A stretch of DNA of 62,375 nt, counting the filler, from Globobulimina sp. (Eukaryota), in the NCBI GenBank assembly GCA_003354225.1. It is 21 parts of 21 records of this genome, joined end to end, with 100 filler letters (N's around TTAATTAATTAA, not from the genome) between each part and the next. Parts side by side here need not be neighbours in the genome. Positions count along the whole stretch, not along the records: positions 5,953 to 8,828 come from PIVH01004525.1; 20 more parts are not named here. One strand, 5' to 3'. Shown piece after piece: positions 1 to 49,658 of the stretch. A program made the translations under genes and the position numbers. Position 1 is the first letter of the stretch, and every line of letters starts with the position of its first letter. The notes under the pieces are model-generated. The model saw only the letters and a list, made by a program, of their open reading frames with translations. It made no database searches and was not told the origin of the DNA.

Positions 1-776
1 GCATTTTTTTCCTCAATTTTATAGGATGATATGTATTGATTATGTAATGAATATCCATTTATTATTGCCGTTGTATTGTTTAATATTTTAAAAGATTTAT
101 CAATCAATAATTCCAATGAAGATAAATGATGAATTAATGCATAGATTGTATTAAAAAATGAAATCCATTCATAATATTCATAAATATCGATTATTAGAAA
201 TATAATATTGAATATTTCAACGATTTGAATGATTTTATAATTAATCGGTGGATATATCAAAATGAGTGAATGTAAGATGAATAGGAAAAACAATAAAAAC
301 CTGTTTGATATAATTAATGTGGATGTGAATAGACTTTGTGTTGGTTCTGGTGATGTATTATTACTGCTATTATCATGAAAATATGAATATAAACCGGCAT
401 AAATTTGATCCATAACATGACTTTCAACATTATATGAAAAATCAGAGATGATGTTGTTTATTATTTGTTGATGTTTTGTTATTGGCTGAATCAAGCATGG
501 ACAAATAATGTATAATATTAGTAAACATTTCTGATATTCACCATCTTGGAGTTGTTTTTGAATTCTGTTGATTTCTTTTGTGATTTGCTTTTCGTTTTCA
601 TATTCACATGTTTGTGCTTTGGGTGATGTGTTCTGAGTTGATAGCTTATTTAAAGCATGTTCATATTTCTCAAAACGTACATTATCCAATCTTTGTGATG
701 TATTTCGTAAATATTCGGCGAATGGGTCATCTTCATATAATATTATGTCACTCTTTTCAAACGGGAATGGCTGCAT
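1..776 (-). CDS. Hypothetical protein, 3'-truncated (MQPFPFEKSDIILYEDDPFAEYLRN...)
   Basis: Manual translation from ATG at 776 stays open for about 258 codons to the window edge. It is absent from the ORF track because it has no stop. Confidence 0.6.
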   Translation of the reverse strand, partial: MQPFPFEKSDIILYEDDPFAEYLRNTSQRLDNVRFEKYEHALNKLSTQNTSPKAQTCEYENEKQITKEINRIQKQLQDGEYQKCLLILYIICPCLIQPITKHQQIINNIISDFSYNVESHVMDQIYAGLYSYFHDNSSNNTSPEPTQSLFTSTLIISNRFLLFFLFILHSLILIYPPINYKIIQIVEIFNIIFLIIDIYEYYEWISFFNTIYALIHHLSSLELLIDKSFKILNNTTAIINGYSLHNQYISSYKIEEKN

Positions 777-932
777 CGATGACGTTTTTAGAAAATGTAT
801 GCATGAAAAGATTTATTTAAGAAATTTTTCATCTAAACGTCAACGCCGTTTTTATGCGATCAGAAATGAAGAATATATTCAGAAATCTTAAAATAACACT
901 AATAATCATCACAAAACACAAAAAAAAATCGG

Positions 933-2876
933 TTACTTGATAATTTCTAGAATAAAATCTTTGCACTCGATACGATTAAATCTATCACAATAAGCTAACA
1001 AATCATATTTACCAGCAATATTTATAATAAATTCCCGTTTATATTTATTAATCAATATTTTTAATATTTTTAATCGATTTAATGATATACAATAAAATAT
1101 TATTGCCGCAAAATTTTCTTTTTCTTTATTTTGTCCAATTAAACATTGCGATAAATATAGACAACAAACATCCAATACAAATATATCATTATTATTATGT
1201 ACCTTAATTGGTATTATTTCCCCTAAAATTGCAATTCCTTTTTTATTATCTTTTAATATGACACTAATTGTATGCTCGATGAATAATTTCAAACTGTTTA
1301 CATACTTTAATTCGATACACATCTCCAAACAATGCATGATTTCTCCATACAATGTTCCATTTTTATCGTATTTTGAATATATTTTATGTACAAAATAACG
1401 AGTTAATTGAATTATAATTGGTTTGTTTTGTGTTTGTACGCCTAATTGTAATGCGGTCATATTCTTTATATTTGTATGTAGCAACAAATCGATTGATAAC
1501 ATATCGTTATTTAGTATGATTTTTACACATTCTTTTTTGTCGTCAATTACTGCTCTTTGCAATATTGTATTATTATTATCATCAAATATGTCCATTTTTA
1601 TATTTGCATTAAATAAATAATAAATTAAATCTGATCGTTCATAATCAATACATGCAAATATATCATGTTTAGTTATTTTACATTGAATGTGCCAATCACA
1701 TAAAACATATTCAATCTCTTTTTGTGATAAATTATATTGCAAAATGTCCAAAATTTTATAATATTTGTACATGTTTTCTCTATTATTCGCTTGTAAATAA
1801 TTACTGATTGTAAAGAAATATAAAATAACCATAAAAATATTCAAAAACATAGCACTGATTATAACTATAACCAATAACCTTAACTCATATGCTTGCTCAT
1901 TTTTTATTAATATCATGCTTGAAATAAGTAAAATGATGCAATTTTCAACGAAACGCGACGCATAAAATATATGCACAGCATTCCAATTTTTAAACAGTAC
2001 AGAAATAAGAGTCCATCCGGTCAGTATTCCAACAATATACAAATAAATATTTGTGGTTTTCGCACAAAAACCAAGATTTGGATAGGAAATAGCAATGGAA
2101 AAGCAATGTAACTGATCATTTCCTAATTTGCGTTTCTTAAATAACATAAAATAAAATATAACTCCATATAACATCCATAAACATAAATAATACGCAGTTG
2201 TACTGATCCATAATAAGCCCATTATTATTACTCTTGCAGATATTTCACAGATTTGATGTATTACAATAACGATACATTTCATATTATTATCTTCAGCAAA
2301 TTCCAATCTATTCCCATTATGTATCATTGACAAAAGCATTGAACAAAGCGATGATAATATAGATATAATTAGTAACAGAGATGTGTGCGAATTCCTATGT
2401 TTCATTAGAAATACAAACTGTATTAAAGTTTGCGGAAAACTTTGTAAAATTGCTTGCATTTTTCTTATCCATTTGAAATAAATATAATCAGAGTATGAGC
2501 CATATACATATTTATAAATTAACACATCAAAAAATTGCATAATTCCGTATTTCCAATGTATAGCGTTGCCAATAGCGAAGCAGCTGATACTTCTATAGGT
2601 TAAATTGGATAATATTGCTAATGCGGTAAAACCAGCGATGCCTTCCATATTATACCAATCCATAATTATTCCAATGTCTGTGCCAGAATCAATAATATGT
2701 ACTACGAACATAATAAAACATATATAACGACTTCTTGTGATCAGTTTATATTTTTCAGGGGGTTTGCTTTTTGGAGATGGTATAGTTGGCAATGTATCAG
2801 AATCAAAATCTGATAGATTTGGGGTATTTTGATTGTTAAATAATCTCAGTGTGTCATCGTATAAATTAACAGGAAT
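933..2876 (-). CDS. XK-related-like multipass membrane protein with C-terminal ankyrin repeats (5'-truncated)
   Basis: XK-like motifs DSGTDI, LQSFPQTLIQ and EISARV plus many TM helices. Ankyrin motifs NNNTILQRAV and NMTALQLGV. The frame is open to the contig end. Confidence 0.65.
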   Translation of the reverse strand: MPVNLYDDTLRLFNNQNTPNLSDFDSDTLPTIPSPKSKPPEKYKLITRSRYICFIMFVVHIIDSGTDIGIIMDWYNMEGIAGFTALAILSNLTYRSISCFAIGNAIHWKYGIMQFFDVLIYKYVYGSYSDYIYFKWIRKMQAILQSFPQTLIQFVFLMKHRNSHTSLLLIISILSSLCSMLLSMIHNGNRLEFAEDNNMKCIVIVIHQICEISARVIIMGLLWISTTAYYLCLWMLYGVIFYFMLFKKRKLGNDQLHCFSIAISYPNLGFCAKTTNIYLYIVGILTGWTLISVLFKNWNAVHIFYASRFVENCIILLISSMILIKNEQAYELRLLVIVIISAMFLNIFMVILYFFTISNYLQANNRENMYKYYKILDILQYNLSQKEIEYVLCDWHIQCKITKHDIFACIDYERSDLIYYLFNANIKMDIFDDNNNTILQRAVIDDKKECVKIILNNDMLSIDLLLHTNIKNMTALQLGVQTQNKPIIIQLTRYFVHKIYSKYDKNGTLYGEIMHCLEMCIELKYVNSLKLFIEHTISVILKDNKKGIAILGEIIPIKVHNNNDIFVLDVCCLYLSQCLIGQNKEKENFAAIIFYCISLNRLKILKILINKYKREFIINIAGKYDLLAYCDRFNRIECKDFILEIIK

Positions 2877-5574: not shown

Positions 5575-6239
5575 TGACAGTAAATGAAATATGGTTTTGC
5601 TTTTCTGACTTTATAATTAGATATTTATTATATTCATAGGTTTGATGCTTCTCGCAATCTCGCTTAGTTGAGTATACAATAAAAAGTCATGATTGGTATT
5701 TAAATGTGTTTAGATGATAGCCATTATGTTGTTATGACCTTGTTCTTGATTTGCAAACCCAAGACAAAGTTATAACAAACCTATAGAAAACCGTTTCTGT
5801 CGTTTAGTTTATAGATTAGATGACTAGTAAACAATGAATAAATCATTGTGCTNNNNNNNNNNNNNNNNNNNNNNNNNNNNNNNNNNNNNNNNNNNNTTAA
5901 TTAATTAANNNNNNNNNNNNNNNNNNNNNNNNNNNNNNNNNNNNNNNNNNNNATCAATATTTTGAAACAGCGTATCAATTTTGGTCGCATTATGGCGTGT
6001 TTTTTGCGGATCTGCATTGTGGAATTTTGGCTCTGTTTTGTGGAACCAGCATTGTGGGGAAGTCACTCAGATGACAAGTGATTTTGCGGACCAGTTTTCC
6101 ATTTGCGGAACTACATAAAGGAACCAGTACACTGATCCGCAAAATATCTTGACGAACTGATATAAAATAATTAATTAAATAAATCTGTTTTAATATTAAA
6201 TAATGACAAATTAAAACAGGAAAAATAAACAAAATAACT

Positions 6240-6365
6240 CATAAAATGCACCTAAAAATACGCCATAAAATCCACCTAAAATACTCTATAAAATTCGCAT
6301 AAAATATCCAAAAAATGCACATAAAATACGCCTAATTCACCATAAAATTCGCCATAAAATCCACA
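6240..6365. repeat. Degenerate 11-12-bp tandem repeat (cataaaat-ncnc) inside the transposon
   Basis: About 10 units such as cataaaatgcac, cataaaatccac, cataaaatacgc, cataaaattcgc. Confidence 0.75.
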
Positions 6366-6869
6366 ATATTTCATTTTAATTCCAAATAAATCAATTCATT
6401 CATTTCGTGAGGCACAATGCCACAAAAATCACCATTAAATATCCCATTAAAATCACTCAAATCGCTTTATTTCCAGTGTCAATTTTGGTGTGTTTGCAGT
6501 GGTGGATTGCCACTCAATTCCTTTCTCCATTCCTTTTCTCATTTTTTTCATCTGATTTATAAATAATTTCTGTTTCTTTTGTTGATACTTGTTTTGTGAC
6601 TGATTGCCGTCCACATAGTCATAGCTCACTCTCTTTTGCCGTATGTTATATCCATTATTTTTATTTTTATTCAATATCTGTTGCTGTTAATTCGTTTCAC
6701 GTGTTTTTGTTTTTGTTGCTGTTCATTCCGTTGTTGATGATGCGTATTATACGAACGTGATCGCGTGCTTTATCCCCAGTTGGTTATTATTGTTAGTAAT
6801 TGTAGTGATTTGACGCGATGAGTTATAGCTGGATTTACGAATATTATTATTTACTTTTGAATATATTTG

Positions 6870-6942
6870 TGGGGCTGCCTCAGGCTTTGAACCTGAATCT
6901 TCTGGATATATCTATCCAGTGCTCTACTTGAGCTAGGCAGTA
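6870..6942 (-). ncRNA. tRNA-like cloverleaf / tRNA-derived element (not a canonical tRNA)
   Basis: Minus strand reads CTGCC-TA-GCTC AAGTA GAGC-A-CTGGA TAGATATA TCCAG-AAGAT-TCAGG TTCAAAG CCTGA-GGCAG. Perfect B-box GGTTCAAAGCC. The D-loop is 5 nt without GG, the anticodon loop is 8 nt, and only 5 acceptor pairs are good. Confidence 0.75.
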
Positions 6943-7668
6943 GTTTGAGGACTGTGCAGTGGATTGATATTGCATTTGCAATTCACAATCATCCACTGAC
7001 TTTGCGGTTCGCCTTCCTTTCAGACGAACGAGAACATGACTGGATGCTGGACATAACAGAGGTAAAGTTTTTCATGTTAATCATTAAGCTTCATTTCATT
7101 TCAACATGAAAAACGCTTTGCGGGGATGTTTTTTGACTTCCACAATGCTAGTCCACAACAGAGAAACTTCCACAATGCCGATCCGCAAAAAACACGCCTC
7201 GCATTATGTCGATATTAATGATAAAAACATGAATAAAATGAATGATAAATTATTAAACGTCTTTTCGTAGAGACAGATTCTGTGAGGTATAAAATATCGC
7301 AGTTGTTTTCGTCGAGATGTTTTCGTTATATTTTAAATTAGTAAACAAATATTTCGATAAATGTAAAATTAAAGCAAATGGAGCCGGAGCCACAAGAAGA
7401 ATAAATCCGGTGTTATTGCATGCGAATGGGGGCATTGATAATGGCGATAATAATTTGCTATCGTGCATCACGCTGTCATTCATATTTGTGATGATAGCTT
7501 AAAGAAAGCACCTTATGAACAAGATTTGGGTTCAATTCCCAATCGTAACTTTTATTATTTTTATTTTATTAAAAAGTTTCAAATAACTTAAGTTTCAAAT
7601 TAATTTTAAATTGACGACAAGCTAACTAACGAGATAATCAAAGACAAATAATAATAAAAAAATATTAT

Positions 7669-8694
7669 TTAAAATGCTGCTTGTGGTACGGCAACATTTG
7701 TTGGTTCATCAAATAAGTTGTCCAATGGTGGAAAATCCCGGAGACCAGGACCTAACTTCAAATCTTGAACCGCGTTTCTTTTCCATTGTGGATTCATTAT
7801 TAATCTTTGAATGGTATCCAATTGTGTAAATAAATCATTCATCTTTACATTCATCCATTGAATTTGTAAATTAAATAACTGTGCATTGAATTCACCTAAA
7901 TATTTTTGATTTGAAATAATACGTTCACGATCTTCAAATATTGCTTGCAATTGTGTGGACGCTACTGCTCCATCTTGTAAATCTACTTCATCCAATAATA
8001 CTGAAGTTTCACTGAATAATATTTCACCTGTACCTACCAATGCTGCACATGTTATTGTTGCTACACAACCACTAATTCCTAAAGGATCTTCACAATTTTG
8101 TGCAATTTCACATACTTCTCTTAAAGCAGCTAACACTTGTGTTGCAAGATGTACATTACGAATAAGACGTGCTACAGCATTAACATCTGTATAAGAGTCT
8201 TTTGATCCACCTGGTAATAATGCAGGAGATGTTTTACCTCCAAATCCACCATAACCACCAAATCCTCGAACTTGACGTAACCAAACTTGTCGACTTAATC
8301 TGGAAAGCATTGCATTATAATCACTTCCTGAATTCGATCCTGGTGTTGCTGGGCCACAATATTGTTGACCATCATTGGAACATTGTGATTGCATTCTTCT
8401 TGCTCTTCTACGTGAATCATCTGATAATGTTGATGTTGAATTACTTGAATTAACACTTTTAACAATCCATGGAATATCAGCACATAAAGAAATAAAATCT
8501 TTTGGTAATTTTGCTGCTAATAGTTGTGTAAATTCTGATGAAACAATTAAAGATAAATTTTGAGGATGTTCTGAATGAGATGATTCTACACTTTGAAAAC
8601 AATCAATAATTGTTTTCGGTGAAAGATCACTTGAGGATCCGATGCCAAATGCAAACATAATGCCTACAATCTTTGATAACATTTTTATCAACAA
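7669..8694 (-). CDS. Secreted hypothetical protein with Cys-containing region and C-terminal coiled coil
   Basis: 341-aa ORF with a signal-peptide-like N-terminus and a basic cluster RRRARR resembling a convertase site. Confidence 0.7.
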   Translation of the reverse strand: MLIKMLSKIVGIMFAFGIGSSSDLSPKTIIDCFQSVESSHSEHPQNLSLIVSSEFTQLLAAKLPKDFISLCADIPWIVKSVNSSNSTSTLSDDSRRRARRMQSQCSNDGQQYCGPATPGSNSGSDYNAMLSRLSRQVWLRQVRGFGGYGGFGGKTSPALLPGGSKDSYTDVNAVARLIRNVHLATQVLAALREVCEIAQNCEDPLGISGCVATITCAALVGTGEILFSETSVLLDEVDLQDGAVASTQLQAIFEDRERIISNQKYLGEFNAQLFNLQIQWMNVKMNDLFTQLDTIQRLIMNPQWKRNAVQDLKLGPGLRDFPPLDNLFDEPTNVAVPQAAF

Positions 8695-8928
8695 AATTCT
8701 TCACAAATTGTGGTGTGTTTTTGTTCTTGTTTTTAATTTTTAAAGTCGAATATACAGTTTTAAAATAGAGCAAGAAGTCTAATAATAGAAACTAAAAATA
8801 GATCCTATTCTAATATTAGAAACTAAAANNNNNNNNNNNNNNNNNNNNNNNNNNNNNNNNNNNNNNNNNNNNTTAATTAATTAANNNNNNNNNNNNNNNN
8901 NNNNNNNNNNNNNNNNNNNNNNNNNNNN

Positions 8929-9357
8929 AAAGAATGGAAAATCATGCTCGGAAACAGAAATCCAAATATTTTGATTGGCATTTTGAATGTAAAAAAAGCA
9001 AAGGATTTGAAATTAAAGAAAAAAAGGCTCATATGTTATAGCTATGGAGATAGTATCGTAAGCAACGGAGATTTTACTGATCGGAAACTCTGCGGATATG
9101 GATTGTATTTAGTTGACGGTTCGCTATATCATCGACATCAAGTTCTTAGCGAGAAATATCTGAACCATCCATTTGTTAGGAATGATATAATTACAATCAT
9201 ATTAGATATGAAAACAAATCAATCATTTGGAACATTAAAATTCAATGCAAATGATAAGGAAATGAATTCAAATGCATTCGAAAGTATTGACTTAAATGAA
9301 ACTTATGTATTAGCAGTTGCGCTGTACAATGAGTTCACCATTTATTTATTGTCTTAA
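8929..9357 (+). CDS. SPRY/B30.2-like domain protein (partial)
   Basis: NDIITIILDM...GTLKFNAND...AFESIDLNETYVLAVAL matches the SPRY C-terminal pattern. Confidence 0.65.
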   Translation, partial: KEWKIMLGNRNPNILIGILNVKKAKDLKLKKKRLICYSYGDSIVSNGDFTDRKLCGYGLYLVDGSLYHRHQVLSEKYLNHPFVRNDIITIILDMKTNQSFGTLKFNANDKEMNSNAFESIDLNETYVLAVALYNEFTIYLLS

Positions 9358-9426
9358 GTGCGTGTTTGTCGTTTATGAGTGAGAGAGAGTTGACATGGTT
9401 GCAAGCGTAAACATGATTTAATTTCA

Positions 9427-11804
9427 CTATTTGCCAGTTATTTTTGTCAATGCCACGCCATCGATATCATTTTCTTCATCTTCATTCAAATCCAAAAATT
9501 GTTTAAAACTTACAACATTCTTCATTTTGCTGTTACGTTTCTTACATAAATAATAACCAAATAACAATACCAAACAAATGACAAACAGTATTCCAACAAT
9601 TAATATCACTGAAAACAATCCTGACCAATAAGACTTTAATTTCACTGCATCTCCTTCCGTATTATAATGAATTGTTATGCTTGAAGACCATCCATCATCT
9701 GAGCTCAATGTAGTTTTCAATATTGGCGCATAAGTGGGCGATGAAAATGGATTTTGTGTTGGTGATATTGTTGGATTTATAATTGGTGCGGAAGTTGGAC
9801 TTAATGTTGGACTTAATGTTGGATTTAATGTTGGATGATATGATGGATTATCTGATGGATTATATGTTGGAGGTTGTGTTGGATTATTCGTTGGTATCAT
9901 ACTTGGATTATCACTGAATATCGTTGGAGCTGACGTAGGTGATATAGTTGGTGCAGTTGTCGGTGCGTTACTCGGTGAATCTGTAATAAACCAACAGTTT
10001 GCAGGTAAAGCTTGATTAGTAAAGGTTGCATTTGGTGTCTTATCATAACAATTACAATGTCGATCTGGCGAACATTGATTACCCCAATGAGTGCTCCGTC
10101 CATCACAGTCTAAATACCATGTTACATCATCGGTGCATTCTGATATCGAGTTACATTGACCACAGCCATTGATTTCAATATCATAGTTGTGGTATCCATT
10201 AAATTTTGTATTCATATCACTGCTCGTTTTTGATATAAATACTATTTGTCCGCATCCAAAACCTTGACAATTTATTTTTGATTTTGTTCTGGGGCCATAG
10301 ATAGAGCCATGATATGCGTTATATGTCTTAGATGATGCGGTCAATTCAAAATAAGATGCATTATACGCATAGATCGGTGGATAACCGGTTAAATCACCCA
10401 ACATTTCAATGAATACTTTATTAGCAGATATTACTTCAATTTTTGGATAATAATAACCAACACAACTTTCTTTTCCTTGGCATATAATATGAACATAATC
10501 GCTCACATTATTACCATATATCCGGTGCCCTTGGCATGCACCGTCCGGCCAATCATTGCCAGCACCTTTAATTATTTGCAAATTGCAATGTAGCATAATG
10601 ATGGAATTAAAGAATATATACAGTACCTTTACAAAACAAATCAATACTTTTTGCAAAATCAGCACGAATTAGTAAATTAGAGCATGCTTTGTTGTGTGTA
10701 CATTGCACATTTAATCGGGTTGGTCCATTTGCATATATATCCATCGCAGAACAATAGCCATCATCACATCGAATATTACAGGATGTATTATCATTGCGTG
10801 GACAATATATTTTCATGTCATTGCATGAATGTCCATCACAAATTAAAGTTAGATTATTACAGTACGTTCCATTCAATAATTTACCCATACAATGGTCAGC
10901 AATTTGGCTGCAATTAAAAATACAAATATCGCCATCCAATGCATATTGTGGTATGCTTACATCGTCGCATGTTTCTGCATCAAATGGCGATATATCCGTC
11001 ATATGGTACAATTCACTGCATTCGCAATAGTCAGTACTCCAGGAACGACAATAAAAACTACCGCCATAATAATAATTGTATCCACTGCTTCCACAGTGTA
11101 GATACCATCGACTGAGACAATTCTCTGCTGAGCAAGCATTGCAACTCAATGCTGTGACATTTAGGCTGGCTTTGATATTATTAAAATTATAAAATGTTAA
11201 ATATCGGCATCCAAAACCTTTACATATTAAATGAGTTGAAATATGATCAGGGTTTTGTACGTCTGCTAAATAAATATTCATTTGGTTACATGTCAAACCG
11301 GCGTAGTCTCCACTTGCACAGGTAATGGAAACATTACTAGCATGGTTTGCAAAAATGTAAGATTTTTCACCTGAGTTGAAAATAATAGAAACATTTAACT
11401 ACTTCAAATGTGCGAAATTAAAGAACATCGGAAAACGATAAAGAATATATGATGAATACCTGCATAAGCACCATTGAAATACAATGATATATTTTTACTG
11501 TATTCAGCATGGAGATACATCAAATACATGCAATAATCACCAATGCAGTTTAATTTGAGGTTATTTGTATTATTGGCGTAAATATGTAATTTATTGCATG
11601 CAAATGGTGCACTAGAATGTGAATTTGATATTGAATTTGGATCAATATTATTCGAGGATGTATCGCAATGTATATTCACATTGTTTGCATAATGAGCCAT
11701 TATTTTAACTGAATTACAACTGTTATTATAATGCGTACAATAAATGTCCAATACATCACTGTTATTCCCTGCAATGATTGTATCGATGCATGATGAACTA
11801 CCAT
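9427..11804 (-). CDS. Cys-rich repeat cell-surface protein with PT-repeat stalk and C-terminal TM helix (5'-truncated, 2 introns)
   Basis: Three track ORFs join in frame through GT-AG introns at 11371-11459 and 10566-10626. Repeated IxC...C..M.IY units, a PT/PS repeat tract, then TM LFSVILIVGILFVICLVLLFGYYL-CKKR. Confidence 0.8.
9740..9978 (-). repeat. Coding PT/PS tetrapeptide (12-bp) repeats
   Basis: SPSNAPTTAPTISPTSAPT...NPTLSPTLSPTSAP. Confidence 0.85.
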
Positions 11805-11904
11805 NNNNNNNNNNNNNNNNNNNNNNNNNNNNNNNNNNNNNNNNNNNNTTAATTAATTAANNNNNNNNNNNNNNNNNNNNNNNNNNNNNNNNNNNNNNNN
11901 NNNN

Positions 11905-12049
11905 ACCTAGCCATAGAAAGGTCGAACATAAACTACTGTGCAAAAAATATAATATGCCATCGATTGATGTGTCAATTGATTGTGACAAATCAGTCCATGA
12001 CTTATTTGTGTTTGCTGTGAAATATTATTGGTTTTTTACGCTGAAATAA
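11905..12049 (+). CDS. 3' fragment, possibly of a divergent Ras-like small GTPase
   Basis: ...LCKKYNMPSIDVSIDCDKSVHDLFVFAVKYYWFFTLK* resembles the G5/last-helix region. Short and weak evidence. Confidence 0.3.
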
Positions 12050-12506
12050 TAGACATTTGGTTGATGCATTCTATTATTAAAACTGTTTATATTTTCTTTG
12101 TTTGATTGTACTATTTGTTTTTGTTTGATTGTATTATATTTTTATTATATATTTTTAACATATATAAATGTATTGTATGTTTGTTAATGTTTTTGATCCC
12201 AAATTAATTTGCGATCATATACATAATGTAAAAATAATGTAAAAACAATGTTTTTTGTTTGATTCATTTAGTTTGTTTATACGCTCGTGTGTCCATATTT
12301 TGTTTACCGGGAAGAGATTGGGTAACAACCCCTTACGGATTGGGTTCACATAAATTTGTACCAAGAAGTTGGTGGACAAAGGTAGAAACGAAGAAGTTGT
12401 TAACAATACTTAACATAATTATAACATAATTATGAATTATTGAAAAACTCCAACATCTCAAAACCTCTGTTTAAACAATACTCAATTCAAACAAATAAAG
12501 GAGAAC

Positions 12507-44533: not shown

Positions 44534-45443
44534 NNNNNNNNNNNNNNNNNNNNNNNNNNNNNNNNNNNNNNNNNNNNTTAATTAATTAANNNNNNNNNNN
44601 NNNNNNNNNNNNNNNNNNNNNNNNNNNNNNNNNACGGTAATGCAGCCACTATTTATTAATATTTTAGCTGCACAGAATCAAAACTTTTCGTTTTATGCAT
44701 ACAAATAGACGGAGATTTTATATGTAAATAACCGTAATACAATACCTTAACAAACAATCAATTATAGTCACATTTCAATACCAATAACGAGTATATACAA
44801 GAATGAGTGATTGGTCATTGGTCATTGGTTACAAGTAAAATAATAAATAATGATTTTATGAATACGTAAGTTGGATAAAACATATTTTTTGGATGCTGTT
44901 GAGTTATATAATAATATATTGGAGCAAGGATATTTACATCTCAATGAGCAAAATAATGTGTGGTTAAAAATTCCTATGAAGGGATTTGGACCCTTTAAAT
45001 TTCAAACTAAATCATACGAATGTATAACAATCCGGAACGGAAGAACCTTCCTGGGCCCCCAGACCGAAACACATGCACACAATTCAATATATCCATTTTC
45101 ACTTTCTTCAAGTGCATAGGACTGCTTTGTATATGTATTTGTATTTGTATATAACACCAAGAGAGCACGAATCATATATAAACCTAAAATATTCAATAAC
45201 AAAACACACATGGGACACTATAAAAGCGTTTCTGGATTATTAAAAAAAACAATATTCCAAGATGTTTTCTGCTTCAGTTGCATGCAAATTATCACGGTAT
45301 TGAATGTGACTGCGGCAACAACTGAATTAGATTGATTTATTCGTTTTTAGTTTTTATTTACTTTAGTCTTTATCATTTATGTATGGTACAAAGTACAGAC
45401 CGCATGATTAAATAGCTCTTGATTTTAAAATACAACAAAAAAG

Positions 45444-46766: not shown

Positions 46767-47607
46767 TGGATTTTCGCGGTATTGGTCTTGATTCTCTGTG
46801 GCTGTGCTCTCGTTATTGTTTATTTTGGCTCACTTCGAGAAAAACATAAATTTAAATGTTGCTAATTTTCATTATTTCTTTCGTCTTTATTATGACTTGT
46901 TTTATTATATAATCAATCATGGTGGATTTGTATCGGTTTATCGTTTTAATATAATGAATGATTAATTAAACTTCAAATAGAATATCAAGTACAAAACAAA
47001 AACGAATACAACAAACAAAAAAAGAAAGAGAATTAATACACAATTTTGAGATTGAGGAACGGGCAATATTTTGAAATTTGCAATCTCATTATATTCAATT
47101 CAATATCAATAAATGAATATTGATATTTATGTACATTGATATTTTATTTTACTTATTTATAATTGTATATAATAAAAATACATATTTAATTATTATTTAT
47201 TAGTGATATATATACATAATCTACACATATTCAGCAGCCACATTGGTAATTTGAATACATTCTCGAGGCTTCAATAATGAAATCGCGATTTTTACACAGT
47301 CAGAGTCCGTTGCTAATACCTCTGAAAACATAATATTATTGTTATGATGCAAGAGTGTGGACACTTTCTCAGGGGTTTTAAAATTGTGGGTTGAACATTC
47401 GAGTAACATGTTCAACATGTTGTCTAAGAGCTGGCTGCACCAAATATAATATGCCTGCTTGATGCCTGCATGTTGAACAACATGTTTAACATGTTGCTTA
47501 CCAGCATNNNNNNNNNNNNNNNNNNNNNNNNNNNNNNNNNNNNNNNNNNNNTTAATTAATTAANNNNNNNNNNNNNNNNNNNNNNNNNNNNNNNNNNNNN
47601 NNNNNNN

Positions 47608-49658
47608 TAAGCATAATTAGATTCGAACTTTGAATCTGATATTTCAATCATTGCAACATCTTCTTTGACCAAATTAAATATTCCATGTCCGAGCTCGAGA
47701 CCTGTGGCTCTATTATTTGTAAAATTACTACGAGTTACTTTGATAATTGGTGCATAATCTGCGCTAAACACGCTGCTCCCTGTATGTGTACGCAGATTAC
47801 CGTCAAATACCGAATCAGTAATAAATGTGTATACCATGTCTAAGCCAGTAATTGTCAGTATTGTAGCAAAATTAGTCTCCGCTTTGGTGTCTTGCGTCTC
47901 TGTACAATCCATAAATGTACAGCCTTGAATAAGAATCATTGATTCAATGTCCATATAAATCATTGACGAATTGGTCCAATTGGAGGTATTGGAGATATTG
48001 GAATAAAACGTACCGTCAATCATTGGTATTGCTGCCGTAGATTTTTCAAAATGTATACAATTACCAACGTGTTGTATAAAATGACAATCTTCGATCAGTA
48101 GCTCAAATTCCATACTTTCATGCATTTGCGAATATAATAATGAGCCAGATCTCACTCCAACTTTATATGGATTTTCACCTATCGTATTGTTATAAAATAA
48201 ATTATTTTGCAATGAAATACTCCCACAATGCGAATCTGTTATTAATTGTACACGGCGTGAACAATACCAATAAAATATTGTGCCATATAAGCCAGCGTTG
48301 TGTGTAAAATTACTATTTTCAATGGTTATATTTGGCAATGTTATTGAATTAATTGTAAATATAGTACCATTATGTGTGTATGATTGGAGAGTTACAAATT
48401 TACCCTGGGATGGCCACCATAACTTTGCATCACCAATTTTAAGTCCATTATCTCCAAAATGCGAATGTCTAATATTAATAAATGCGTTTTGTTGCTGTAT
48501 TCGCATAGCCGATGGTCCTAATAAATCATCATTACGGTTAAAATTAAATATTATGCCATTAATATCTGTAAATGTGGATGTATCAACTTCCAAAATAAAG
48601 TAAGTTTGCGATGGATCAAATGATAAATCAATGGTAAATATATTTGTATCCGCGCCATATACATAAGAATCGGTGATAAGTAAATCACCGCATAGCTCCA
48701 CGCCATTTAATCGTTTTTGGCAAATCCAATGTACGGCACTCCCTAATGCCGATGATGCAATATTTGTTATATTCGAAGCTGAAAATGTGACATAGACATT
48801 ATTTCGTTCAATGTATAATATTGCGCCATATTCTGCAAATACGTTCTCTATTTTACAACTCCTAAAAATGTACGGCATAAAAACAAAAAATACAAATATA
48901 CAAATATACAACATATATAATAATGTATGATATCTCAACTCAAAAGTTACATTAATTCCCTTTGTATAGCCATTGTTCATGTTATTATTTGCCATATTTA
49001 TGATAGCCCCATTGATGCCATTTATATTTGAAAATTGACAGCCATCCATTACAATATCTAATTCAATATCAATTGCGACCACATCAATCAAGGAAAATAC
49101 CGTGCCATCTGAGGAAAAACTAATATTTACAATTTCCACCAATCCTTCATATGATGAAATGGATAAAAAGGTGCGAGATAATATTATATTTGTTTCATTC
49201 TCGTGATTTAATAAATGATTTTTAGATGAAAATTTGATATGATTTATTGTTATATTATGTGATAAAATATATGTCTTATCAATAATTTGTCCATCTTCGA
49301 GAAAGAATGTGCACGAATCCTCTGTCAGATAAGGGAGTGGATAATACGTTGGATCAATGATTTCAAAAAAACTGACATTGCCACAATAATTAATTAGGAC
49401 ATTGTCTATGTCGCCACAATATGATGATACATCTGTCAATGTATTGTTATGCCAATAGAATTCGTCCACGCAATACTCGTCGGCTACATTTGTTGCTACA
49501 ATGCACGAAAATGTTTTACTTTTGTTGCAATTTGGAGGATTATGTGTAGACTCAACGTGATGGTTGGAATGTAAGTTCAGCTGCGTTATTACGATAAGTC
49601 TGAATGATAATTGATAATAATAACCCTTGAATGAATAAAAAACGCAATGGTCGATCAT
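47608..49658 (-). CDS. Parallel beta-helix (pectin-lyase-like) repeat surface protein, truncated
   Basis: Repeated I..S.F..N.A..GA(I) units. Probable in-frame intron near 48860-48950. Confidence 0.65.

Follow-up and report, generated by a model that had tools for sequence, protein, structure and literature searches.

A putative SINE-head-like, tRNA-derived module within a modular family of non-autonomous DNA transposons from Globobulimina sp.

In the stretch of 62,375 nucleotides analyzed here (the window; Globobulimina sp., assembly GCA_003354225.1), a non-autonomous cut-and-paste DNA transposon of 1205 bp, lying between terminal inverted repeats (TIRs) at 5994-7198, carries a tRNA-shaped module on its minus strand. 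Our data suggest that this module, unit 1 (6871-6942, minus strand), is tRNA-derived and non-decoding and resembles the head of a short interspersed nuclear element (SINE), that is, an RNA polymerase III (Pol III) module, housed within a modular family of MITEs (miniature inverted-repeat transposable elements); the probability of this reading is roughly 0.65. Read inward from the right TIR, the plan of the family would comprise the TIR with subterminal repeats, a palindrome-rich leader, unit 1 and an AT-rich minisatellite, followed in some copies by a second tRNA-like module (unit 2) with oligo-T and then by the other TIR. The A-box-like and B-box sequences of unit 1 may bind TFIIIC, and the unit may give rise to a short transcript, made by Pol III, that takes the shape of a cloverleaf and ends at the first T run. 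What is kept in the unit would then be its shape and its boxes, with the anticodon loop free to change.

The minimum free energy (MFE) fold of 6866-6946 on the minus strand is a cloverleaf (−29.4 kcal/mol, z = −4.87, 0 of 200 shuffles as good), and R1, the family model of unit 1, matches the unit with 103.6 bits. The D arm consists of a perfect 4-bp stem and a 5-nt loop, the T arm of a perfect 5-bp stem closed by the loop TTCAAAG, and the anticodon arm of 5 bp with an 8-nt loop or, equally, of 7 bp with a 4-nt loop. With positions 1-2 and 71-72 left unpaired, the acceptor stem is 5 bp long. The initial annotation, made on the sequence alone, had described a cloverleaf with perfect D, anticodon and T stems, a B box, a shrunken D loop and an 8-nt anticodon loop, and all of this was found, with the 4-nt loop as an equivalent form. 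The degenerate cloverleaf has what defines a tRNA-derived SINE head, namely relatedness to tRNA, an A-box-like sequence (TAGCTCAAGTAG) and a B box (GGTTCAAAGCC, which fits what we take to be the B-box consensus), both boxes being judged by consensus sequences that we assume. It lacks the 7-bp acceptor stem, the 7-nt anticodon loop and the normal D loop of a functional tRNA.

The window copy was compared with fetched loci (L001-L023). L001 and L002 were found by one metagenome scan with a 24-nt pattern from the unit-1 anticodon arm, and L003, a 656-bp contig in a metagenome-assembled genome (MAG G001) labelled Gammaproteobacteria, was found with the same pattern; L004-L021 are further eukaryote-like contigs obtained by searching this contaminated MAG. 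Eight copies of unit 1 were aligned (alignment A3), and 89.8% of 167 cells are paired, with complete pairing in the T and anticodon stems (100% each), 96.9% in the D stem and 71.4% in the acceptor stem. The acceptor stem has 5 bp in seven of the eight copies; position 1-72 never pairs, and 2-71 pairs in two of eight. Sliding the pairing partners lowers the pairing to 32-40%. Three pairs are changed on both sides: two lie in the acceptor stem (GTCGCC / GGCGAC vs. CTGCC / GGCAG), the third in the anticodon stem. Of 500 shuffles, 2 attained the covariation score of 0.145, and 11 attained the six cells changed on both sides. Among the 19 well-formed pairs, one-sided changes gave five G·U cells and no A·C cells when read on the minus strand, a small hint of a strand-specific constraint at the RNA level. 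In the anticodon arm, an invariant stem adjoins a loop whose length is anything from about 4 to 15 nt, and the B box is kept in all eight copies. Furthermore, the unit has fewer variable columns than the leader that precedes it (4 of 72 vs. 31 of 130, p = 0.0008), also when the 24-nt bait is left out (3 of 48, p = 0.009). Two diverged relatives are recognizable as tRNA-like (the Rfam tRNA model gives L008 31.1 bits, and L007 is called by ARAGORN), and therefore unit 1 is derived from tRNA; as far as its sequence tells, it does not decode. The proposal that intact stems with non-canonical loops speak for shape rather than decoding is in keeping with stems that are kept among the copies while the loops vary. 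Of the two origins suggested at the outset, a DNA transposon that carries a Pol III promoter or SINE head agrees both with this pattern and with the TIRs and target-site duplication (TSD) of the element.

A rather unlikely alternative is that unit 1 is a passive relic, i.e., a tRNA pseudogene or SINE fragment that was captured once by an ancestor of the MITE and carried along without any activity of its own, in which case the apparent conservation would reflect young copies, gene conversion or the way in which the copies were found. Indeed, several observations weigh against the SINE-head-like module, and some of them favor the relic. If substitutions only are counted, the difference between the unit (3 of 48 columns) and its flank (17 of 116 columns) is not significant (p = 0.19); downstream of the window copy of unit 1 there is no T4 terminator for 418 nt, the first TTTT being at 6452; an exact 24-mer lying within the unit had served to retrieve three of the four sister copies; and the T loop of unit 2 is mutated in five of its nine copies (GGGTCT or GGGTCC for GGGTTC). 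The number of pairs changed on both sides (three) is not significant either, since it was reached by 115 of 500 shuffles, and the covariation stems from few events in two subfamilies. ARAGORN finds no tRNA gene in the window, the Rfam tRNA model has no match to unit 1 even at E ≤ 10 on 111 nt, the acceptor stem is only 5 bp long, and TAGCTCAAGTAG fits what is presumably the A-box consensus only if one inserted base is allowed. The comparison copies are short contigs whose species is not established, and a DNA transposon needs no RNA intermediate, so that the reason for a selection on shape is unclear. A relic is, however, hard to reconcile with stems that are still paired in a subfamily differing at about 20% of the positions, with three compensated pairs and G·U variants unaccompanied by A·C variants, with a loop whose length varies freely beside an invariant stem, and with the presence of the unit in many contexts beyond this MITE.

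The position of unit 1 among the copies ties the putative SINE-head-like module to the transposon family. The leader and unit 1 occur in the same order and with about 90% identity in the window copy, L001, L002 and L004, which are all four copies that span the junction, and L004 also carries the TIR. Since the unit is found at the same junction in four of four copies, it is not a one-off insertion into the window copy; it is an inherited building block of a modular transposon family. An independent SINE that had jumped into the window copy once by chance would account for the much wider distribution of the unit compared with the remainder of the element, but L001, L002 and L004 contradict it, neither a TSD around unit 1 nor a poly(A) stretch, A-tail or LINE-like tail (from a long interspersed nuclear element) was seen in the window, and we give it next to no credence. 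Of the suspicion that a common SINE had inserted once, the first half stands, the unit being a common repeat, and the second falls, because the window copy is not the only one that has it.

About 6 nt past unit 1, the copies split into three continuations: a private A-rich segment of 386 nt in the window copy (6480-6865, minus strand), a separate sequence common to L001 and L004, and a different sequence in L002 and L003 that leads into TATTTATGG-type repeats. The private segment, with an A content of 48% on the minus strand and free of T4 runs, has no match in any fetched locus and is covered only by contigs of single-locus depth; T4 runs follow unit 1 after 20-31 nt in L001, L002 and L004. 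The 3' flanks of other unit-1 copies are A/C-rich (CCAACAAA...), on contigs too short to define their ends. Upstream of the unit, the modules come apart as well. In L003, unit 1 is present and the homology ends at 6984, the same junction being a loose end in X3; X1 and X3 denote contigs from sequencing data, which were used for depth, junctions and loose ends. L007, L008 and L010 hold a diverged unit-1 subfamily in other flanks; L003, L007 and L010 have the unit without hairpins; L009 is a diverged copy of the leader (the hairpin region) with no unit at E ≤ 0.01; and one X1 contig joins the TIR directly to 6952. In G001, seven loci match R1 as unit 1, and a TIR motif lies within the (short) contig in one of the seven. 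Summed contig depth, which is not a copy number according to the tool's own warning and serves as a hint beside the loose ends and the G001 tally, was 7500-12400 for the unit, 190-760 for leader plus TIR and 12-20 for the private segment, some bins being without coverage; loose contig ends lie at 6870, 6918 and 6935. Thus, the modules of the family are separable, and hairpins and cloverleaf are not one conserved RNA cassette. Whether family copies would lack the cassette, a point on which its validity had been made to depend, has a divided answer: some relatives lack parts of it, and unit 1 is kept in all of the copies that span the junction. One unit-1 copy has an unusual setting: in L010, positions 1-117 and 773-889 are the same stretch of about 117 nt directly after the unit, which places the unit in a tandem repeat of about 776 bp or points to a circularly assembled contig.

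Leader and unit can also be read as an open reading frame (ORF), of 69-106 amino acids (aa) in L002 and L004 and 78 aa in L009, with a common peptide (~...SQ.LDDCEL). A coding remnant was considered and rejected: the window copy and L001 are frameshifted, L002 and L009 differ by about 3 synonymous and about 13 non-synonymous changes (counted by eye), no longer ORF was found in G001, and no longer protein was found at E ≤ 0.01, the last point being weak evidence.

The hairpins that precede unit 1 were part of the original proposal, which had seen three of them and the cloverleaf as a single structured cassette. On the minus strand, all are located where they had been placed. Hairpin 1 (H1, 7067-7114) has 12 perfect pairs (7114-7103 with 7078-7067) around a 24-nt loop, confirming the perfect 12-bp inverted repeat; no other perfect stem of at least 12 bp (loop 3-30) exists in the 62-kb window, and a first-order Markov resample is expected to contain 0.35 of them. 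Hairpin 2 (H2, 7007-7029) has eight pairs (7029-7022 with 7014-7007), one of them a U·G that becomes C·A on the plus strand, just as had been noticed. Hairpin 3 (H3, 6957-6998) has an 8-bp outer stem (6998-6991 with 6964-6957) and an inner stem of 5 bp. Perfect 8-bp hairpins are frequent in the window (76 vs. 52 ± 8 in resamples), so that H2 and H3 are unremarkable taken singly. For the 255-nt stretch of hairpins and cloverleaf, the fold of the minus strand (z = −3.90) is better than that of the plus strand (z = −2.45).

Among the copies, the hairpins change. L004 keeps 11 of the 12 pairs of H1 together with an identical loop. In L001 and L002, H1 is altered, and a perfect 11-bp repeat (ATGCTCGACAT / ATGTCGAGCAT) is situated one step inward; the window copy and L004 match this repeat at only 8 of 11 positions. 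The stem of H2 is identical, U·G included, in the window copy, L001 and L002, and in L004 a 6-nt deletion takes part of its 3' arm. H3 alone gave fold z values of −3.82 in the window copy, −4.63 in L002, −1.58 in L004, −1.89 in L009 and −0.03 in L001, which has lost the 5' arm; it is strong in only two of five copies. Its arms, CAGTGGAT / ATCCACTG in the window copy and CATTGGAT / ATCCAATG in L002, differ by one compensated pair (the third, U-A for G-C), and all six X1 contigs covering 6959 have the L002-type base there. This compensation becomes visible only after realignment of a 4-nt indel; in the four-copy MAFFT alignment as made, no hairpin pair is changed on both sides. Compensatory changes, which had been named as a test of the cassette, are hence present in the cloverleaf and in one pair of H3 and absent elsewhere in it. 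We read the hairpins as subterminal DNA palindromes that turn over among copies, and not as an RNA conserved with the cloverleaf; H1 and H3 are not conserved as structures, and a single structured cassette did not hold up.

The second origin suggested for the cloverleaf was a processing signal like that of mascRNA. The mascRNA of MALAT1 has a tRNA-like, non-decoding fold with a full acceptor stem and is a single-copy processing product of an RNA polymerase II (Pol II) transcript. By analogy, a transcript from the right TIR would be cut by RNase P near 6942, freeing an upstream hairpin RNA as a guide or scaffold. The arrangement would suit such a role, with hairpins upstream of the cloverleaf on the same strand, a U·G in H2 that fits only the minus strand and is kept in three of three copies having the stem, and the compensated pair of H3 between the window copy and L002. 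However, the acceptor stem with its unpaired ends is at odds with an RNase P/Z signal, L001 and L002 have a different palindrome in place of H1, L004 has an eroded H2, and H3 is missing from L001 and only weak in both L004 and L009. The hairpins also occur apart from the unit, and the unit apart from the hairpins. For a guide or scaffold RNA, a partner might be expected, but in no locus was a TnpB/Fanzor-like or transposase ORF found next to the unit (L001 and L004 being judged by Pfam), the one Pfam match, in L001, being a weak C2H2 hit. Processing of this kind is very improbable, and neither the RNase P/Z signal nor the guide RNA is supported.

The transposon that carries the tRNA-derived module, already noted in the initial annotation, is bounded by TIRs and a TSD. 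The left TIR (5994-6065, plus strand; core 5994-6028) has subterminal TTGCGGA / CATTGTGGAA motifs and is complementary to the right TIR (7134-7198, minus strand; core 7164-7198), with 94% complementarity over the 35 nt of the cores and 86% over 72 nt; the window contains exactly two occurrences of the TIR pattern, against 0 expected. Directly outside both TIRs lies the same 9-mer, TCGCATTAT, on the left at 5985-5993 and, as a perfect copy, on the right at 7199-7207. The AT-rich minisatellite (6231-6460, minus strand; of the CCATAAAAT type if read on the plus strand and of the TATTTTATGG type if read on the minus strand) was detected as the direct-repeat families D1 and D2, and an array of the same type follows unit 1 in L001, L002 and L004. 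ORFs overlapping the element do not exceed 80 aa. With its TIRs, its perfect 9-bp TSD, its lack of coding capacity and the related copies L001, L002 and L004, the element has the features of a MITE. We take TSDs of 9-11 bp to be typical of Mutator and Mutator-like elements (MULEs), which includes the TSD seen here; Merlin, for which we assume 8-9 bp, would be compatible with it as well. The 9-bp TSD and the long TIRs, rather than a transposase, point to a Mutator/MULE-like superfamily. Like non-autonomous MULEs, the element has a 9-bp TSD (by the rule just assumed) and long imperfect TIRs with subterminal repeats, and its private internal segment is reminiscent of sequence capture.

No transposase or autonomous partner was found among the fetched loci. 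Within the element itself no TnpB/Fanzor ORF was seen, as judged by ORF length, Pfam not having been run on the element ORFs, and a protein search with the ORF adjoining the element gave no usable match. Downstream of the minisatellite, L001 has two ORFs of 151 and 192 aa (497-1524, plus strand) with a common C-x2-C ... H-x3-H pattern and the one weak Pfam C2H2 match (E = 1.6e-4); L004 (178-768, minus strand) diverges from L001 inside this ORF region, which may be captured sequence or a host gene. Skipping the whole element, two X1 contigs connect 5992 with 7203 or 7216, the joint reading TCGCATTA / ATTATGTCG. With sides of 23-28 nt and a threshold of 80%, they only hint at a possible empty site with an excision footprint.

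Outside the TIRs, the window contains a solo copy of unit 2 (7488-7566, plus strand), i.e., a compact tRNA-like sequence of 64 nt (7488-7551) followed by a T-rich run. The Rfam tRNA model, whose gathering score is 29, matches 7488-7550 (plus strand) with 34.1 bits, ARAGORN makes no call there, and R2, the family model of unit 2, gives 82.6 bits. L002 is homologous only over 7485-7560 and other copies only over the module, and a TSD around 7488-7566 was not seen. In L002, units 1 and 2 lie in the same orientation on either side of the minisatellite; the window element is without an internal unit 2 (by eye). Nine copies of unit 2 (alignment A4) fold as a cloverleaf of 64-65 nt in which the acceptor stem has 7 bp without a mismatch, the D loop measures 5 nt and the variable loop is nearly absent, 96.3% of cells being paired and one D-stem pair being compensated. 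With the Rfam tRNA model, copies of unit 2 obtain 31.7-51.4 bits. A run of T4 or more stands immediately behind the unit in six of nine copies and within about 15 nt of it in eight of nine. R1 and R2 cross-match each other's units with 31.4 and 24.1 bits, which indicates that units 1 and 2 are related.

A bolder version is that the propagating lineages of the family maintain Pol III tRNA-like genes of their own by selection for cloverleaf shape, with unit 1 at the head of the element, unit 2 and oligo-T at its close and the minisatellite bracketed by the two, and with modules that may also spread independently as retroposed Pol III transcripts. If true, the element would be a hybrid with two modes of mobility, or one that exploits tRNA-like RNA or TFIIIC binding; we consider this unlikely. 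A single Pol III transcript running from unit 1 through the minisatellite to unit 2 was rejected, because T4 runs stand 20-31 nt after unit 1 in L001, L002 and L004. It is also imaginable that the module acts at the level of DNA, the B box serving as a TFIIIC site (an extra-TFIIIC or tDNA-like insulator) for open chromatin or against silencing, with RNA being irrelevant. The B box kept in all copies of unit 1 and the bracketing of the minisatellite in L002 would fit such a role. However, a B box alone would not demand paired or compensated D, anticodon and acceptor stems, and the B-box core is changed in five of nine copies of unit 2; this role is improbable.

In general, SINEs have a tRNA-related sequence, A- and B-box-like motifs and many dispersed copies (PMC3845634). 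tRNA-derived SINE heads, which contain an internal type-2 Pol III promoter, resemble unit 1 in being remnant cloverleaves that do not decode and that occur in many dispersed copies. Unlike SINEs, unit 1 sits at a fixed position in a transposon with TIRs and TSD, without a TSD, LINE-derived tail or A-rich tail of its own having been seen, and homology among its copies stops about 6 nt after the acceptor stem. The pearl / DTC84 MITEs of bivalves are non-autonomous, bounded by TIRs and endowed with an internal minisatellite, and their modules are rearranged (PMC5139131). In these respects, the family of the window element is like them, being modular, TIR-bounded and equipped with an internal minisatellite. 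The likeness is one of description only; tRNA-like modules are not mentioned for pearl in the passages considered, and neither the superfamily nor the host seems to be related. GUT15 is a tRNA-like RNA (PMC6152437). Unit 1 shares with mascRNA and GUT15 a tRNA-like, non-decoding fold and differs from them in its 5-bp acceptor stem, its many copies and the lack of a conserved upstream RNA. Units of murid gammaherpesvirus 68 likewise combine a tRNA-like module with hairpins. In that virus, the tRNA-like module is a Pol III promoter and the hairpins that follow are transcribed from it. In the transposon, by contrast, the hairpins precede unit 1, and therefore an internal promoter would not transcribe them.

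A tRNA-derived Pol III module is a hallmark of SINEs, which move by way of RNA, whereas elements with TIRs and TSDs move as DNA and have no known need for it. A family of DNA transposons that keeps tRNA-shaped modules thus raises the possibility of a module exchange between DNA and RNA mobile elements; the modules may recruit the Pol III machinery to transposons or seed new SINEs. The element, a MITE with a SINE-like tRNA module, combines two known kinds, and the module is an uncommon component of selfish DNA rather than a demonstrated new RNA machine. Among titles and abstract openings found in the full-text literature, there was no description of tRNA-like modules inside MITEs; supplements may hold relevant repeat libraries. 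The practical value is modest and consists of a repeat family to annotate, with the warning that tRNA-like matches near genes in this genome are parts of transposons.

The window (G+C of about 31%) is a mosaic of about 21 pieces of about 2876 nt, separated by 20 linkers of 100 nt (44 N, TTAATTAATTAA, 44 N) at 2877-2976, 5853-5952, 8829-8928 and so on, every 2976 nt or so. The real context of the element is the piece 5953-8828 only, and adjacency across linkers is not genomic. Since the window is such a mosaic, its reading as one gene-dense stretch was rejected, and ORFs running across a linker, such as 47556-49658, are artefacts. Pfam matches in other pieces are XK-related, CIP2A_N, aconitase, apyrase and PI4K_N, which suggest a eukaryotic source, probably an animal. 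The unit pattern had 0 matches in viral contigs.

G001 is a 3.1-Mb MAG labelled Gammaproteobacteria with many short contigs that bear eukaryote-type repeats (the TIR element and tRNA-like units); these eukaryote-like contigs are host contamination of the bin. Another repeat family is common to the window and this MAG: a 117-nt repeat at the start of another piece (44634-44750) matches the G001 contigs L022 and L023 with 99% identity, which argues that the contaminating organism is the same as, or close to, that of the window. Between the transposon and the solo unit 2 there are 290 nt, and the stop codon of the ORF at 7669-8694 (minus strand) is about 120 nt away from this unit. Apart from one weak candidate, no other units were found in the window; this candidate, at 44964-45021 (minus strand), is a unit-2-like remnant (18.6 bits to R2, E = 0.02) that reads GGGTCCAAATCCC and then TTTTT. 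Five of the nine unit-2 copies (L015, L016, L017, L019 and L020) have an upstream minisatellite monomer with a GC-rich palindrome of the GGCGGCGAAGCCGCCGC type, unlike the minisatellite monomers of the window element, which are AT-only.

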